NCBI RefSeq assembly: GCF_018336915.1
Contig: NZ_CP064923.1
Location: forward strand, 3,510,001-3,542,000
Reading direction: 5' to 3'
Length of the DNA: 32,000 bases
Source of the DNA: Acaryochloris marina S15
GTDB lineage: Bacteria; Cyanobacteriota; Cyanobacteriia; Thermosynechococcales; Thermosynechococcaceae
Shown: piece after piece, positions 9,020 through 15,291 of the stretch
Layout of the letters: every line of letters starts with the position of its first letter
How positions within the stretch are numbered: the stretch's first letter is position 1
Position numbers and translations under genes: made by a program
The notes under the pieces: generated by a model
What the model saw: only the letters and a program-made list of their open reading frames with translations
Told to the model about the DNA's origin: nothing
The model's database searches: none

Positions 9020-9790
9020 TTAGTGGGCCTCTTCTCCGTCCCCATGACCTTCTAACGACTCGTGAATATAAGCACCAGCCAAGGTCGCAAAGACCAATGC
9101 TTGAATACCGCTGGTAAATAGTCCCAGCAACATCACAGGCAAAGGCACAATTAAGGGAACGAGTAGCACCAAAACTGCAACCACTAGCTCGTCGGCAAGG
9201 ATGTTACCAAACAGACGAAAACTAAGGGAAAGCGGCTTGGTGAAATCTTCAAGAATCGCAATTGGTAGCAGTACCGGAGTGGGTTCGATGTACTTGCGAA
9301 AGTAACCGAGACCTTTTTTCCGAAATCCTGCGTAAAAGTAAACAAACGAAGTACACAATGCCAAAGCGACAGTGGTGTTGATGTCGTTTGTGGGTGCTGC
9401 GAGTTCTCCCTCGGGAAGACTAATAAGCTTCCAAGGGAATAGAGCACCGGACCAATTGGAGACAAATATGAATAGAAAGAGCGTCCCGATGAATGGCACC
9501 CATGGACGGTATTCTTTCTCGCCAATTTGATTTTTGGTCAAATCACGGACAAACTCTAGCGCGTACTCCATGAAATTTTGGAGACCACTAGGAATGCGCT
9601 CAACCTTGCGGGTTGCCAGCACAGACACAATGACTAAGATGCCGATGACGATCCAGGATGTAATCAGAACCTGACCATGAACCTTTAAGCCACCGATCTG
9701 CCAGTATAGGTGCTGACCCACCTCTAAACTTGCTAAAGGCAAGGTGGTGAACCAATTAAAAGAATCTAGCAGAAGGCTGCTGTGATGCAT
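9020..9790 (-). CDS. atpB: F0F1 ATP synthase subunit a (atpI in cyanobacterial nomenclature)
   Basis: Polytopic membrane protein. Contains the conserved [13 protein letters not shown] motif (essential Arg) and a C-terminal HESLEGH. Confidence 0.96.
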
Positions 9791-9848: not shown

Positions 9849-10208
9849 TCAGGAATTAGTTGAGGGCGACAGAACTGCAGACCACAAGACGAAAAAGAGG
9901 ATGCCAACTTTGTAGGTTAGAAATCCTAAAAAAACAGGTAGGACTTCTAACTGATTCCACTTAGCTGCCACGACAATGAGGATGACAAAAACACCTAGCT
10001 GGCCTTTGCCGACTTGGGTATTCCCGCTTCCTAACTGTTCAACGTTCTTCGCCAAAATCCTTAGGTATAGCACTCCGACGGATGCACCGAGCAAATAGCT
10101 GCTGGCAACTTTCAGAGAGTACACCCACCAAACAGGGCCAAAAAATAACCCTGCTATAACTGAAGATGAAATTATCAAGCCATTTTTGAATTGATAAAAG
10201 TCATCCAT
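9849..10208 (-). CDS. atpI: ATP synthase protein I (atp1)
   Basis: Small hydrophobic protein and first gene of the operon. The track ORF starts at GTG 10298. I prefer ATG 10208 (MDDFYQFKNGLII...) because AGGAG sits 5-6 nt upstream (minus strand reads GCAGGAGATTCG-ATG). The extra 30 codons are acidic/Ser-rich and atypical. Confidence 0.8.
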   Translation of the reverse strand: MDDFYQFKNGLIISSSVIAGLFFGPVWWVYSLKVASSYLLGASVGVLYLRILAKNVEQLGSGNTQVGKGQLGVFVILIVVAAKWNQLEVLPVFLGFLTYKVGILFFVLWSAVLSPSTNS

Positions 10209-10371
10209 CGAATCTCCTGCTTGAGAGATCTGCGATTCAACTGGCTCACTCTCGCTTGAGGTGGCACCGGGCTGAAGGGGAGTATCTGACAATTCCACAG
10301 GCTAGAAATTTGGTTTGGATGCGTTACTGCAGGCCAAGGCCAATGATATCACGGCTGGGTAACATTACTTA

Positions 10372-11391
10372 ATGAATAACCTTGAGAATCTAAAATTTAA
10401 CCCAAAGATATTCTGGTCATTTTTGTTTATGTGCCTAGGGGGATGTTCGATGGCTAAAAAGCTTGATATTTCGCCTTCGCAAGTGCAACGTTCTCCATTG
10501 CCAATTCAGACTCCTAAACAACCTGAACAGCTGCAGCAACAGGTAATCCCTGTCTCTGCTGACAAAAACTTAAAGTCGGTACAGCCTTCTCAGTTAAAGG
10601 CTTCTAATGATGGTGTAGTGATGAATGCGATCGCAGGTTGGAACCGGGATTTGCAGGTCAAAGACGTATATTACGATTTGTATCTACCGCCACAATTACA
10701 AGAAAATCCCAATCCTCAGCGTCCCTGTTTAGTCGTTTTACCAGGCTGGGATTTCCCCCGGGCTAGCTGGGTGGAAAACACCAACTTAGTCGACTTTGCC
10801 GATCGGTATGGCTATGTGTTGTTGCTCCCTGAAATGGACAAGACCCTCTATGCCAGTGCCTACCATCCCGAAACCACCCTCAAGTGGAATAGCATTCCGG
10901 GGGGAGCATTCATCAAAACAGTGTTTATCCCCGCAATCCAGAAACGCCACCAACTACTCCTGCCGGGTCAACACAATACCCTGCTGGGTCTCTCTACTGG
11001 AGGCCGAGGGGTAGCTCTGATTGCCCTTGAAAATCCAGGACTATTTGTGGCGGGTGCCAGTTTGTCGGGAGACTTTAGCCAGGAGAATACCCCTGAAGAT
11101 CGACTGATGACTGCTCTGTATGGTTCTTTTTCTCAATTTCAATCCCGTTGGCTCGGTCGAGATAACCCGCAAGCTCGGGCTTCAGAATGGACCATGCCCA
11201 TATATCTGTCCCACGGCAAAGCAGATAACATTGTGCCAGAGTCTCAAAGTCGCCTATTTTTTGAAGCCATAAAACAGCAGCAATCGTCTGCAGTTGTGGA
11301 GTATCATCCAGTGGCTGGTGCAGGCCATGATTATCCCTATTGGGGAAGCCAATTAGAGGCCGTTTTCAAGTTTATTGACCAGCCCCGATAG
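10372..11391 (+). CDS. Alpha/beta hydrolase (putative esterase family), probable lipoprotein
   Basis: N-terminal signal with lipobox-like FLFMCLGGC. Nucleophile elbow GLSTGG (GxSxG). C-terminal HGKADNIVP and GHDYPYW are consistent with an Asp/His triad. Confidence 0.75.
   Translation: MNNLENLKFNPKIFWSFLFMCLGGCSMAKKLDISPSQVQRSPLPIQTPKQPEQLQQQVIPVSADKNLKSVQPSQLKASNDGVVMNAIAGWNRDLQVKDVYYDLYLPPQLQENPNPQRPCLVVLPGWDFPRASWVENTNLVDFADRYGYVLLLPEMDKTLYASAYHPETTLKWNSIPGGAFIKTVFIPAIQKRHQLLLPGQHNTLLGLSTGGRGVALIALENPGLFVAGASLSGDFSQENTPEDRLMTALYGSFSQFQSRWLGRDNPQARASEWTMPIYLSHGKADNIVPESQSRLFFEAIKQQQSSAVVEYHPVAGAGHDYPYWGSQLEAVFKFIDQPR
10627..10634. repeat. HIP1 octamer GCGATCGC
   Basis: Perfect GCGATCGC read directly from the sequence. 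Confidence 0.9.
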
Positions 11392-11422: not shown

Positions 11423-12760
11423 ATGCGCATTGTTGCCTATCTCTACCAGGACTTAACGTGGGAAACAAAGTTAGAACCCACCATTTGGGGATGGGAAGTG
11501 GATCGGGTTTATCAGGATTTAGATTGGCGACGGTCCCAACTCACGGCGCTACTAGCGGACTGTCAGACTGAAATACCTGACTATTTACTGGTGATACGGC
11601 TGGAAGATTTGGGAGAATCCCTGAGCCAGGTCACAGAGAATTTAGTGCAGCTTGAAGGACTAGACATCTGCATTGTTGCGATTGAGCAAGACTACCAATC
11701 TCCAAATTTCAAGCCAGGGCTGGCAACTCTTGATCAGAATGGTGCAGAAAGTGCCGATTCATCCCAGCTTTTGGTGTTACTAGAGGCAATTCAAGCAGAG
11801 CAGCGCAGTCGGCGCATTCGCCATGGCCATGCCCAAAACCGGATCAAACGACGTCCGCCCCCAGGGAAAGCTCCCTATGGCTATAAGCGAGGCAAAGATC
11901 GATATGTGATCGATCGCACGGTTTCTCCAGTAGTAAAAGACTTTTTCGAACATTTCCTCCTCTATGGATCTTTGCGTGGGTCTGTGCGGCATATTGCCAA
12001 GAAGCATGGCAAAAAGATATCGGTTTCTACTGGACGGCGATGGCTGACCAATCCCGTTTATCGGGGAGACTTAACCTACCAAAACCAACAGGTAGTGATG
12101 GACACCCATACGCCCCTGCTTTCCCGAGAAGAAGGAGCCCAAGTAGATCGGCTTCTGCGCCGCAACCGCAGTATGACGCCTAGGGCTGCGAGTGCACCTC
12201 GATCTCTTTCAGGAATTGTATTTTGCGCCACCTGTCAATCTCCCATGACCATCTCGCGAGTCATGCCCCGAGGTAAAGGCAAGGAATATCTCTACCTACG
12301 GCCAACGAAGTGTCCTGAAAAGCCGAGATGTCAGGCGATTTCCTATGACAAGATTTTGCAGAAAACGATTCAATCCATTTGTGAAGAACTTCCCCAGGCA
12401 GTGGCTGGGGTCAACCAACCGATCCTGAATCAATTTAAACAAGGTGTAGATACTGAAATTGCAGCAAAACAAGCCATTTTGTCTCAATTACCTGCACTGG
12501 TCGAAACCAAAGTTTTGGACCAATCTACAGCCGATTTACGAGCCTACAATGTGCAAACTGAAATTGCAGAGTTAAAAAGTCGATTGGCTCAACTCCCCCC
12601 GGTGAACTTAAAGGAAATTGCCCAAACCGTATCCATCGATCAGTTTTGGATGGATCTATCAGAATCTGAACGACGCTTTTATTTTCGAGAGTTTATTCGC
12701 CAGGTGGATCTGATTCGAGATGGCAAAGACTGTGATATCAAACTAAATTTCATGTTTTGA
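11423..12760 (+). CDS. Large-serine-recombinase-like protein (resolvase-like N-domain, recombinase domain, Zn ribbon, coiled coil) lacking the catalytic Ser and Arg residues
   Basis: ORF 11375..12760, with a TTG track start; ATG at 11423 gives MRIVAYLYQDL.... The recombinase domain is recognisable (PPPGKAPYGYKRGKDRYVIDRTVSPVVKDFFEHFL, RRWLTNPVYRGDL, THTPLLSREE). A Zn ribbon (FCATCQSP...CPEKPRC) and a C-terminal coiled coil are present. The N-domain has YLYQDL where YxRVS(T/S) is expected, and RLEDLGES where LDRLxRS is expected. Confidence 0.7.
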   Translation: MRIVAYLYQDLTWETKLEPTIWGWEVDRVYQDLDWRRSQLTALLADCQTEIPDYLLVIRLEDLGESLSQVTENLVQLEGLDICIVAIEQDYQSPNFKPGLATLDQNGAESADSSQLLVLLEAIQAEQRSRRIRHGHAQNRIKRRPPPGKAPYGYKRGKDRYVIDRTVSPVVKDFFEHFLLYGSLRGSVRHIAKKHGKKISVSTGRRWLTNPVYRGDLTYQNQQVVMDTHTPLLSREEGAQVDRLLRRNRSMTPRAASAPRSLSGIVFCATCQSPMTISRVMPRGKGKEYLYLRPTKCPEKPRCQAISYDKILQKTIQSICEELPQAVAGVNQPILNQFKQGVDTEIAAKQAILSQLPALVETKVLDQSTADLRAYNVQTEIAELKSRLAQLPPVNLKEIAQTVSIDQFWMDLSESERRFYFREFIRQVDLIRDGKDCDIKLNFMF

Positions 12761-14730: not shown

Positions 14731-14814
14731 AGGGGGTGATGCAGGACGGAGAGGGTGAATCTATCTGGAGAGGAGATTCGCCCTCTCGATGGCAAGCATG
14801 CAGAGGGAAAGCTT

Positions 14815-15291
14815 ATGAATTCAACTCAACTGTTACGAGACTATGGTTCTGGACAACGTGGTTTCCAGAATGCCTATTGCCATCAGATTGATCTGCGGGG
14901 CGCAGCCTTAAGTCAGATTCATTTGAGTGGGGCTGATCTGAGTCAAGCTGATTTAGCCAGTACAAACCTGAATGGTGCCAATTTGAGTTGCGCCAATTTG
15001 ACGGATGCTGATTTGAGTCAAGCTGATCTTCGCAGTGCCAATTTGAGTCAGGTTAACTTGATTGGCGCTGATTTAAGTGGTGCAAAATTGGGGCGGGTTA
15101 ATCTCAAAGGGGCTGATTTGCGGTGTGCGAACCTTAGCCATGCCGATTTTACTGGGGCTTGTTTGGATGGAGCCGAATTGAGTGGTGCCGAGTTAAATGG
15201 AGCCAACATTACCCAAGCAGAATTAAGCCAAACAGCTCGACACAGTGGTGAACCCCACCAATGGGTGAGTTGGGCAGGAAGCCACCAGTAG
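14815..15291 (+). CDS. Pentapeptide repeat protein
   Basis: ORF 14755..15291, with a GTG track start. ATG at 14815 is preceded by AGAGGGA with 6-nt spacing. It gives MNSTQLLRDYGSGQRGF, which parallels the N-terminus of the other pentapeptide-repeat protein (MTAEELMERYAAGERDF). The body is very regular A(D/N)LSx repeats with 15-nt periodicity in the DNA. Confidence 0.9.
   Translation: MNSTQLLRDYGSGQRGFQNAYCHQIDLRGAALSQIHLSGADLSQADLASTNLNGANLSCANLTDADLSQADLRSANLSQVNLIGADLSGAKLGRVNLKGADLRCANLSHADFTGACLDGAELSGAELNGANITQAELSQTARHSGEPHQWVSWAGSHQ

Follow-up and report, generated by a model that had tools for sequence, protein, structure and literature searches.

As enzymes, serine recombinases are known from mobile elements and programmed rearrangements. 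The transcription factor WhiA, whose role has been experimentally established, is a degenerate LAGLIDADG homing endonuclease. Among the large serine recombinases (LSRs), XisF is, by its NCBIfam name (NF041201), the developmentally regulated excisase of the fdxN element, while phage integrases such as A118/LI (4kis and 9dxd), Bxb1 (9iu2), PhiC31 (9rah and 9tep) and TP901-1 (3bvp) are active enzymes that work with attP/attB sites and directionality factors. We describe a gene of Acaryochloris marina S15 whose product has the complete LSR domain order and none of the serine-recombinase catalytic residues. It lies in the window, the whole stretch of 32,000 nucleotides that was analysed (NZ_CP064923.1, forward-strand positions 3,510,001 to 3,542,000), with the features listed below. 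A literature search found no paper on this family, and no described case of a vertically inherited LSR that has no catalytic residue left and is under strong purifying selection.

11423-12760, + strand: LSR-homologue open reading frame, catalytically degenerate; 445 aa plus stop, full-length hhalign match to true LSRs (E = 8.6e-53)
11423-11752, + strand: N-terminal resolvase-fold domain (residues 1-110); net charge -13, least conserved domain
11435-11464, + strand: degenerate motif 1, AYLYQDLTWE (residues 5-14); recombinase counterpart GYxRVSTxxQ
11591-11620, + strand: degenerate motif 2, VIRLEDLGES (residues 57-66); recombinase counterpart LDRLxR
11756-11845, + strand: helix alpha-E (residues 112-141, an AlphaFold2 helix); net charge +6
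11873-12187, + strand: recombinase domain, PF07508 (residues 151-255); basic with net charge +12, most conserved domain
12206-12364, + strand: Cys4 zinc-ribbon domain, PF13408 (residues 262-314); net charge +7
12344-12598, + strand: coiled-coil insertion (residues 308-392); AlphaFold2 helices 308-328, 333-361 and 367-389, conserved tip at about 359-375
12599-12757, + strand: C-terminal helices and beta-hairpin (residues 393-445) with FW.DLSE.ERRFYFREF; the same element occurs in XisF-type LSRs

The open reading frame starts with ATG at 11423 and ends with a stop codon at 12758-12760. Because the homologues begin at the same Met as the product MKIIAYLY..., we assign the start to this ATG and not to the TTG at 11375. 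Both spacings given in the original prediction, a 31-nt gap to the esterase gene (stop at 11391) and a 17-nt overlap if the TTG is used, were reproduced.

The full LSR domain order that had been read from the sequence alone is borne out by Pfam, AlphaFold2 and Foldseek. The protein runs from a resolvase-fold N-domain through alpha-E, the recombinase domain and the Cys4 zinc ribbon to the coiled coil. Pfam places PF07508 (Recombinase) at residues 167-248 (E = 1.2e-9, 38.8 bits against a cut-off of 21.1) and PF13408 (Zn_ribbon_recom) at residues 262-314 (E = 9.2e-8, 32.8 bits against 25.3). PF00239 (Resolvase) scores 22.6 bits, slightly below its cut-off of 23.3, and is recorded for most relatives; its alignment covers profile positions 32-139 only, so that the part of the profile with the Ser motif is left unmatched. 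The AlphaFold2 model (pLDDT 79.5) shows a beta-alpha-beta N-domain (strands 3-8, 28-32, 54-57 and 83-86; helices 38-49 and 67-79) and a long helix at 112-141, followed by the recombinase domain, zinc ribbon and coiled coil. Foldseek aligns the N-terminal part with the catalytic domains of Sin, gamma-delta and TP901-1 at a target TM of 0.5-0.7, in agreement with a resolvase fold and a long alpha-E, and the coiled-coil insertion in the zinc-ribbon domain is seen both in the AlphaFold2 helices and in full-length structural alignment to LSRs. After alpha-E comes a conserved RPPPGKAPYGY linker, and in an alignment of 25 sequences Q124, G135, H136, N139, R140, P146, P147 and G148 around the helix and linker are invariant, as are the zinc-ribbon cysteines C268, C271, C297 and C303.

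The best structural matches to the model are full-length phage integrases, led by 9dxd (1e-16) and including Bxb1 9iu2, A118 4kis and PhiC31, with Foldseek E-values of 1e-16 to 1e-10 over the integrases named above. These share the arrangement of recombinase domain, zinc ribbon and coiled coil at only 13-20% identity, although the recombinase and zinc-ribbon domains of A118 can still be matched by sequence (E = 2e-8). In contrast to these active enzymes, the window protein has neither the catalytic Ser and Arg residues nor an att-like repeat at its gene. By sequence, the XisF-type LSRs and related outgroup LSRs, among them P0204, P0214 and P0246, have the same domain order and align over their full length at approximately 24-31% identity. 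Their likeness extends to the C-terminal FW...E(K/R)R..Y..F element, in which FW.DLSE.ERRFYFREF aligns to FWxxxxxxEKRxxYxxFVxRV of the outgroup LSRs. The window protein nevertheless scores 131.5 bits with the XisF equivalog NF041201, whose cut-off is 375, and the family to which it belongs is a vertically inherited chromosomal gene rather than an element-borne excisase.

That the nucleophile Ser and the active-site Arg residues are replaced had been proposed from an alignment made by eye. This alignment proved correct in hhalign (probability 100 between the family and true LSRs), in HMMER profile alignments and in the column counts of the family, and no profile alignment placed a Ser or Arg of the window protein in the catalytic columns. 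The hhalign register puts Y6 on Y6, Y8 on R8, Q9 on V9 and D10 on S10 in motif 1, and E61 on D67, D62 on R68 and E65 on R71 in motif 2; the DRLxR motif falls in the same register when HMMER aligns TP901-1 integrase or gamma-delta resolvase, so that three independent alignments agree. The column counts cover 246 distinct members of the family, with 41 LSRs as the outgroup. The R8 column of the family contains Tyr (237), Cys (7) or Phe (2) and no Arg. The nucleophile column, S10 of gamma-delta resolvase, is mostly Asp (187), with Glu in 20, Asn in 7 and Ser in none. At R68 the residues are Glu (173) and Asp (52), with Arg in 3 of the 246, the only catalytic Arg column in which that residue occurs in the family, and at R71 they are Asp (195), Glu (29) and Asn (15). 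The outgroup LSRs, on the other hand, retain R8 in 40, S10 in 39, R68 in 39 and R71 in 38 of 41 sequences. With Y8, D10, D62 and E65 in these four columns, the window protein has lost the nucleophile as well as the three phosphate-binding Arg residues, and thus serine-recombinase chemistry.

The remainder of the protein is strongly conserved. Over the whole gene dN/dS is 0.035-0.053, and it falls to 0.013-0.04 for alpha-E plus the recombinase domain. Pairwise identity is 70% in the recombinase domain, where 31 of 105 columns are at least 95% conserved, compared with 47% in the N-domain, and the most conserved parts altogether are the basic recombinase and zinc-ribbon domains and the coiled-coil tip (L359 in 242, D366 in 245, R373 in 243 and Y375 in 237 of 246). 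The DNA-binding and coiled-coil modules are kept, as the original prediction had it.

Relatives are widespread among cyanobacteria and sharply separated from their nearest true LSRs, family members scoring at least 344 bits with the family HMM and LSRs at most 113 bits. A genome scan found the family in at least several hundred candidate stretches, 565 of the 600 pattern-matched stretches listed being confirmed as relatives, with both patterns able to match in a single gene. The 80 loci retained for comparison, each from a different genome record, are all cyanobacterial, and the reading frame is intact in every one. The gene is also present in non-heterocystous lineages, and members were found in Thermostichales (ABD00507.1), Gloeomargarita and Pseudanabaenaceae. 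With taxonomic groups assigned from record titles, the gene tree recovers Nostocales (22/22), Microcoleus (15/15), Acaryochloris (4/4), Moorena (4/4) and Chroococcidiopsidales (3/3) as monophyletic, and the early-branching Thermostichales and Gloeomargarita are basal. The gene is therefore vertically inherited across cyanobacteria under purifying selection. A sporadic distribution with flanking att sites, as expected of an active integrase or a decaying prophage, was not what we found, since the tree follows taxonomy at the low dN/dS given above and a search of 2.9 million viral contigs returned no family member.

The surroundings of the gene carry no sign of a mobile element. Its GC content is in line with that of the neighbouring genes, PADLOC gave no match, and the reported lack of flanking att-like or terminal inverted repeats holds, as only short pairs of chance size were detected at the gene. 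The description of the locus as a housekeeping neighbourhood with HIP1 copies stands in part: HIP1 (GCGATCGC) has 11 copies in the window where 0.33 would be expected, but the neighbourhood is not conserved beyond close relatives. Only one to three of these share the atp, esterase, DUF2059 and methyltransferase neighbours, and synteny in the window thus gives no functional clue. In most other cyanobacteria the gene directly follows a small VOC/glyoxalase-like gene, which is absent from this window; the VOC gene is directly upstream in 61 of the 80 loci, often 4 nt away. Operator motifs were sought by k-mer enrichment in 37-57 de-replicated loci, taking from each the 250-300 bp that precede the gene or the VOC-gene pair. 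Early k-mer matches were rejected as an operator because they are the coding start of the VOC gene (ATGCAAATTACCCA, encoding MQITH), and after its removal only lineage-specific Microcoleus strings were left, with no phylum-wide upstream motif in these loci. Promoter and terminator scans returned nothing informative.

Vertical inheritance and strong selection across cyanobacteria make it probable that the host has repurposed this recombinase as a protein that binds DNA without cutting it. We consider the gene product most likely to be an ancient, host-domesticated and non-catalytic LSR, a putative sequence-specific DNA-binding and possibly DNA-bridging protein. The catalytic columns, the distribution, the tree and dN/dS all support the proposal that it is an exapted, catalytically inert recombinase with its DNA-binding modules in place; from the retained modules we infer DNA binding, dimerisation and bridging, and a biological role as a regulator, a nucleoid protein or a partner of another recombinase. 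A dimer held together by alpha-E would bind specific DNA sites through the recombinase and zinc-ribbon domains, and the conserved coiled-coil tip would contact a second dimer or a partner protein. The protein would in effect work like an LSR-att complex frozen before cleavage, in an architectural, bridging or regulatory capacity. The history resembles that of WhiA, in that a mobile-element enzyme lost its catalytic residues, kept its DNA-recognition scaffold and became a conserved, vertically inherited host protein, although fold and chemistry are unrelated and only the role of WhiA is experimentally established.

This model does not explain the N-domain. With a dN/dS of 0.07-0.11, not neutral, with acidic residues conserved at the former R68 (E/D in 225 of 246), R71 (D/E in 224) and S10 (D/E in 207) positions, and with Y6 (246/246), D32 (245/246) and R37 (244/246), which correspond to resolvase Y6, D36 and R45, nearly invariant, the domain is not freely decaying and may have a function of its own. 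In TOPRIM or receiver domains, acidic residues occupy what would be the same topological positions as these Arg-to-acid replacements. It is therefore conceivable, though we think it unlikely, that the N-domain was rebuilt as a new functional site controlling the DNA-binding modules, an acidic pocket for a metal, a small ligand or a phosphoryl group. The pocket might be formed by D10, E61, D62 and E65, located where beta1 and beta3 end, and by Y6, D32 and R37, which were retained, a composition to which we likewise assign a minor chance. The VOC metalloprotein gene directly upstream in most loci hints at a link to a metabolite. Two of these acidic residues, however, vary in divergent lineages, where column 10 is T, S, N, H, P or A and column 61 is A, G or S. 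The N-domain is, moreover, the least conserved part of the protein and appears to be reduced or lost, and dispensable, in some Pseudanabaenaceae, for which gene calls from metagenome bins give proteins of 304, 374 and 388 aa that apparently miss the N-domain and/or alpha-E and keep the rest.

A more doubtful proposal addresses the DNA target of the domesticated recombinase, and holds that it is a HIP1-linked factor that binds or bridges HIP1 DNA or takes part when transforming DNA is taken up or processed in a HIP1-dependent manner. The recombinase and zinc-ribbon domains are very highly conserved from one order to the next, which implies that their DNA target, too, is conserved throughout the phylum, and the genome of the window is rich in HIP1. 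The family is present in HIP1-rich lineages and Thermostichales, with none seen in marine picocyanobacteria among 30 clusters. A HIP1-binding protein has been proposed and never found (PMC5861425). According to a 2026 preprint (bioRxiv 10.64898/2026.06.24.733823), the 'recombinase family protein' ABB57196.1 (Synpcc7942_1166) of Synechococcus elongatus is one of 110 families that co-occur with HIP1 over-representation, being found in nearly all HIP1-rich genomes with 5 mismatches in each direction. Synpcc7942_1166 (also WP_011242696.1) is a candidate and probably the S. elongatus orthologue of our family, with the same PGAP name as family members and a compatible phyletic pattern; the accessible text of bioRxiv 10.64898/2026.06.24.733823 does not mention missing catalytic residues. 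A profile of divergent family members gave no S. elongatus confirmation, its best 120 matches all being mainstream members, and S. elongatus was absent from cluster look-ups of 30 representatives. The locus tag Synpcc7942_1166 found no mention in the searchable literature.

Several observations weigh against the HIP1 link, beginning with the orthology of Synpcc7942_1166, which is only probable. The co-occurrence is weak evidence, since 2,148 families correlate with HIP1 in total in the same preprint. Thermostichales, which lack HIP1, still keep the protein. The dimer of a canonical LSR reads 40-50 bp, as stated in the abstract of a PhiC31 preprint, and the contacts of the LSR recombinase and zinc-ribbon domains fall well outside the central 8 bp. 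At 979 HIP1 sites the positions flanking the octamer carry no sequence information (0.05 bit or less each), which argues against an att-like site of 40-50 bp centred on HIP1. The full form of the idea, in which the dead recombinase is the long-sought HIP1 partner and binds and bridges HIP1 DNA with the modules it keeps for DNA binding and coiled-coil synapsis, is in our judgement rather improbable. If it is true, HIP1 would be connected with nucleoid architecture or with the way in which transforming DNA is processed, and in a variant of the idea HIP1 binding would respond, through the rebuilt acidic N-domain, to a metal or metabolite, possibly in connection with the adjacent VOC protein.

An active recombinase with a non-canonical site, in which Ser/Thr9 or a tyrosine (Y6 or Y8) serves as nucleophile, is very improbable. 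Y6 is invariant and Y8 nearly so, D32 and R37 are kept, and position 9, adjoining the former nucleophile column, is Ser or Thr in 171 of 246 members (70%). However, this position is Gln in the window protein and 35 others and Tyr, Cys, Arg or Val in other members, and the Tyr and acidic residues that replaced the three phosphate-binding Arg would repel the scissile phosphate. There are, in addition, no flanking sites, the gene context varies between orders and the tree is without signs of mobility. A prophage or integrative-element remnant that is functionless and decaying, although the closest active relatives are element-borne XisF-type LSRs, can virtually be dismissed with an intact frame at 80/80 loci, a dN/dS of approximately 0.04, about 60% identity between cyanobacterial orders, a tree congruent with taxonomy and no island signature. 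Selection, distribution and active-site data together led us to reject both of these readings.

A separate observation concerns the name shared by such proteins. We take the Synechocystis gene slr8029 to be plasmid-borne. Its product is likewise called a 'recombinase family protein', and an RNA-seq paper put it in the Resolvase TF family.

The annotations 'recombinase family protein' and 'DNA invertase Pin-like' mislead when applied to the family described here, which is also likely to be called falsely by prophage or island predictors with LSR domains among their markers. If the reading as a host-domesticated, non-catalytic LSR is correct, there would be a new scaffold among the few bacterial proteins with a DNA-binding or architectural role that descend from enzymes of mobile elements. 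The nucleoid proteins of cyanobacteria are poorly known (PMC5861425), and these organisms would gain a candidate for a factor that bridges DNA at specific sites. Because the family and HIP1 probably co-occur, the 30-year-old question of HIP1 function and its binding partner becomes directly testable on one protein.

The large serine recombinase (LSR) homologue in the window is encoded by an intact reading frame, whose start we place at the ATG at 11423, not the upstream TTG, because homologues share the first methionine (MKIIAYLY...):

11423-12760, + strand: LSR-homologue ORF, intact, 445 codons

The domain order read from the sequence in the original prediction is borne out by Pfam, which places the Recombinase domain (PF07508) at residues 167-248 (E = 1.2e-9) and the recombinase zinc ribbon (PF13408) at residues 262-314 (E = 9e-8), and by an AlphaFold2 model built from a 25-sequence alignment (mean pLDDT 79.5). 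The modelled protein begins with a beta-alpha-beta N-domain and a 30-residue helix at 112-141, followed by the recombinase domain, zinc ribbon, a two-helix coiled coil and a C-terminal hairpin. The top PDB matches to this model in Foldseek are full-length LSRs, including the LI/A118-type integrase-RDF complex 9dxd (E = 1e-16), with Bxb1 (9iu2), A118 (4kis) and PhiC31 also among the best, and structures of the catalytic domain alone, from Sin, gamma-delta resolvase and TP901-1 integrase, align to the N-domain. The closest named relative in NCBIfam is the XisF equivalog, at 131 bits versus a cut-off of 375. The Resolvase profile (PF00239) scored 22.6 bits against a cut-off of 23.3, and its alignment covers only profile positions 32-139, so that the part of the profile holding the serine motif is unmatched.

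An alignment by eye had indicated that the nucleophile serine and two active-site arginines are replaced by acidic or neutral residues; three independent alignments (HMMER, hhalign and MAFFT) agree on this register and thus show it to be right. In HMMER, the profile of the family (the window protein and its cyanobacterial homologues) reads 'rrLEeLGdS' where TP901-1 integrase has 'YKLDRLSRS' and gamma-delta resolvase 'KKLDRLGRD'. Full-length hhalign of the family against ten of the nearest true LSRs (probability 100, E = 8.6e-53) pairs Y6, Y8, Q9 and D10 with Y6, R8, V9 and S10, and D32, R37, E61, D62 and E65 with D36, R45, D67, R68 and R71. For the column counts, 246 non-identical family members were aligned in MAFFT with 41 outgroup LSRs and gamma-delta resolvase.

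Table. Residues at the catalytic columns (resolvase numbering) in the family (n = 246) and outgroup LSRs (n = 41)
R8 column: family Y 237, C 7, F 2; outgroup R 40
S10 column: family D 187, E 20, N 7, no Ser; outgroup S 39
R68 column: family E 173, D 52; outgroup R 39
R71 column: family D 195, E 29, N 15; outgroup R 38

No serine or arginine falls in these columns in the window protein and, judged from the alignments, the family has lost the nucleophile together with all three phosphate-binding arginines. The replacements are consistently acidic, not random, and other residues of the old active site are kept (Y6 in 246/246, D32 in 245/246, R37 in 244/246). At position 9, which adjoins the former nucleophile column, 171/246 members carry Ser or Thr and the window protein Gln. 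Arg occurs at the R68 column in three of the 246, apparently including the homologue P0144, which reads WDRLGDN there.

The family is large and uniform. A word-indexed search returned 2,460 relatives, the best 120 of which cover the whole query at 56-93% identity; any organism names they carry are cyanobacterial. In an exhaustive library clustered at 50% identity, family representatives match at E = 1e-88 or better (44-57% identity), and the next full-length tier, at about 1e-23 (25-31%), is made up of LSRs whose GYxRxS and DRLxR motifs are intact; the family HMM scores members at at least 344 bits versus at most 113 bits for the nearest true LSRs. Scanning one genome per GTDB species with two patterns, by which one gene can be counted twice, confirmed 565 relatives among the 600 pattern-matched stretches listed. 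The 80 loci kept from the matches listed come from 80 different records, all cyanobacterial, and span Nostocales, Oscillatoriales, Leptolyngbya-like groups, Acaryochloridaceae, Thermosynechococcaceae, Chroococcidiopsidales and Pleurocapsales; an Acaryochloris bin protein is 93% identical to the window protein. Cluster look-ups extend the family to Thermostichales ('Synechococcus' JA-3-3Ab, ABD00507.1), Gloeomargarita and Pseudanabaenaceae. The gene is widespread in cyanobacteria, not sporadic. In a neighbour-joining tree (n = 64), groups assigned from record titles form clades: Nostocales (22/22), Microcoleus (15/15), Acaryochloris (4/4), Moorena/Symploca (4/4) and Chroococcidiopsidales (3/3). 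Thermostichales and Gloeomargarita are basal in it, as they are in species trees. Pairwise dN/dS among Acaryochloris orthologues is 0.035-0.053; by domain, the N-domain gives higher values (0.07-0.11) than alpha-E plus the recombinase domain (0.013-0.04).

Table. Conservation by domain in the family, and net charge in the window protein
N-domain: mean pairwise identity 47%; columns at least 95% conserved 7/110; net charge -13
Alpha-E and linker: 55%; 4/40; +6
Recombinase domain: 70%; 31/105; +12
Zinc ribbon: 61%; 14/52; +7

It is established that, in active LSRs, the att half-site is held by the C-terminus of alpha-E with the linker, the recombinase domain and the zinc ribbon, and the tips of the coiled coil make the intersubunit contacts that control synapsis. 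Q124, G135, H136, N139, R140 and PPPG are invariant in alpha-E and the linker (25-sequence alignment), and the coiled-coil turn is nearly so (L359 242/246, D366 245/246, R373 243/246, Y375 237/246). This pattern of selection suggests that DNA binding and the coiled-coil contacts have been kept and catalysis has not. Consistent with that, metagenome-bin gene calls in Pseudanabaenaceae include forms of 304 aa (P0162/P0316), 374 aa (P0163) and 388 aa (P0153) that begin at or just before the PPG.PYGY linker, lacking the N-domain and/or alpha-E and keeping the recombinase domain, zinc ribbon, coiled coil and C-terminus; these could be natural versions with the DNA-binding module only, or gene-calling artefacts. 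We infer that the family protein would be a non-catalytic, sequence-specific DNA binder, its binding, oligomeric state and role all being predictions, and that it may bridge two DNA sites. A less probable proposal, which overlaps this DNA-binding model and does not exclude it, is that the N-domain was rebuilt as an acidic pocket that would bind a metal or ligand, or act as a phospho-acceptor, and regulate DNA binding; the acidic replacements are conserved and Y6, D32 and R37 retained, but D10 and E61 vary in deep lineages and the N-domain is apparently lost in some Pseudanabaenaceae.

The window gene was described as lying in a housekeeping neighbourhood with copies of HIP1, a palindromic octamer over-represented in many cyanobacterial genomes. 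The copies and a 31-nt gap to the esterase stop, upstream on the same strand, are there, but the neighbours (atp1/atpI, esterase, a DUF2059 protein and a methyltransferase) are common to just 1-3 close relatives among the 80 loci.

9020-9790, - strand: ATP synthase subunit-a ORF; the ATP synthase operon runs on along this strand to lower coordinates
9849-10298, - strand: ORF upstream of subunit a, matching Pfam CGL160_C and ATP-synt_I; appears to be cyanobacterial atp1, related to a plant ATP-synthase assembly factor
10372-11391, + strand: esterase (alpha/beta-hydrolase) ORF, N-terminus with a lipobox-like LGGC
14755-15291, + strand: pentapeptide-repeat protein ORF, with runs of A(D/N)LSxADLSx
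L014:7638-7997 and L007:7578-7940 (collected loci), same strand as the LSR homologue: VOC gene, as in 59 other loci

Adjacency to the esterase occurs in only 1/80 related loci and is therefore a local novelty of the window's lineage. The immediate upstream neighbour in 61/80 loci, on the same strand, is a gene for a VOC/glyoxalase superfamily protein of about 119 aa (PF00903, E = 5e-11; MQITQ.LHTAILV.DLE..EHFYG...; top NCBIfam match the YaeR-like family, under cut-off), separated from the LSR homologue by a median of 42 nt and often only 4 nt. This pairing, found in several orders, suggests an old two-gene operon. The VOC gene has no tblastn match anywhere in the 32-kb window, where the esterase gene occupies its place.

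The literature searched on inactive or domesticated cyanobacterial serine recombinases yielded no account of the family, nor do the relevant passages of a 2022 review on recruitment of mobile-element genes include such a recombinase. A 2026 preprint (bioRxiv 10.64898/2026.06.24.733823) lists ABB57196.1, a 'recombinase family protein' (Synpcc7942_1166, WP_011242696.1), as one of 110 families tracking HIP1 over-representation across 166 cyanobacterial genomes, with five genomes having the protein without HIP1 and five HIP1 without the protein. Its name and distribution fit, and on these Synpcc7942_1166 is a candidate family member. The family is present in Thermostichales, which are without HIP1, and the clusters looked up showed no member from marine picocyanobacteria. 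Both the function of HIP1 and a protein that binds it await identification (PMC5861425). The genome of the window is HIP1-rich, the window holding 11 HIP1 octamers versus 0.33 expected from shuffles:

546, 867, 2996, 10627, 12983, 13195, 15587, 18516, 19897, 21064, 21167: HIP1 octamer, GCGATCGC

The recombinase-like ORF contains none of the 11, and the convergent DUF2059 gene immediately downstream contains two. That the family protein binds HIP1 DNA is improbable: the 979 HIP1 sites in the collected loci hold no information beyond the octamer, whereas an LSR dimer reads 40-50 bp (PhiC31 preprint), and the preprint's co-occurrence screen flagged thousands of families.

Flanking repeats sought around the gene were just short pairs of chance size, in keeping with the predicted lack of att-like sites, and its GC content equals that of its neighbours. 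No family member was found in 2.9 million viral contigs and PADLOC gave no match. The sole viral-contig match to the family patterns, L081:6001-6402 (IMGVR_UViG_3300035523_000151), is a distant relative (27% identity over residues 146-275), presumably a conventional phage LSR. The window gene is a vertically inherited host gene. An active recombinase with a non-canonical site is very unlikely; an integrase was rejected on the taxon-congruent tree, the lack of att-like repeats, even GC and the absence of viral-contig members, and the selection and distribution data leave virtually no room for a decaying, functionless remnant.

The loss of chemistry and the domestication of an LSR, as the original prediction proposed, are solid, given the replaced catalytic columns, purifying selection, vertical inheritance and lack of mobile context. 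At the level of sequence, these data support exaptation of an LSR scaffold into a non-enzymatic host protein, widespread in cyanobacteria. Such loss of catalysis and domestication would surprise specialists, and the family gives a concrete way into the biology of the cyanobacterial nucleoid and of HIP1.
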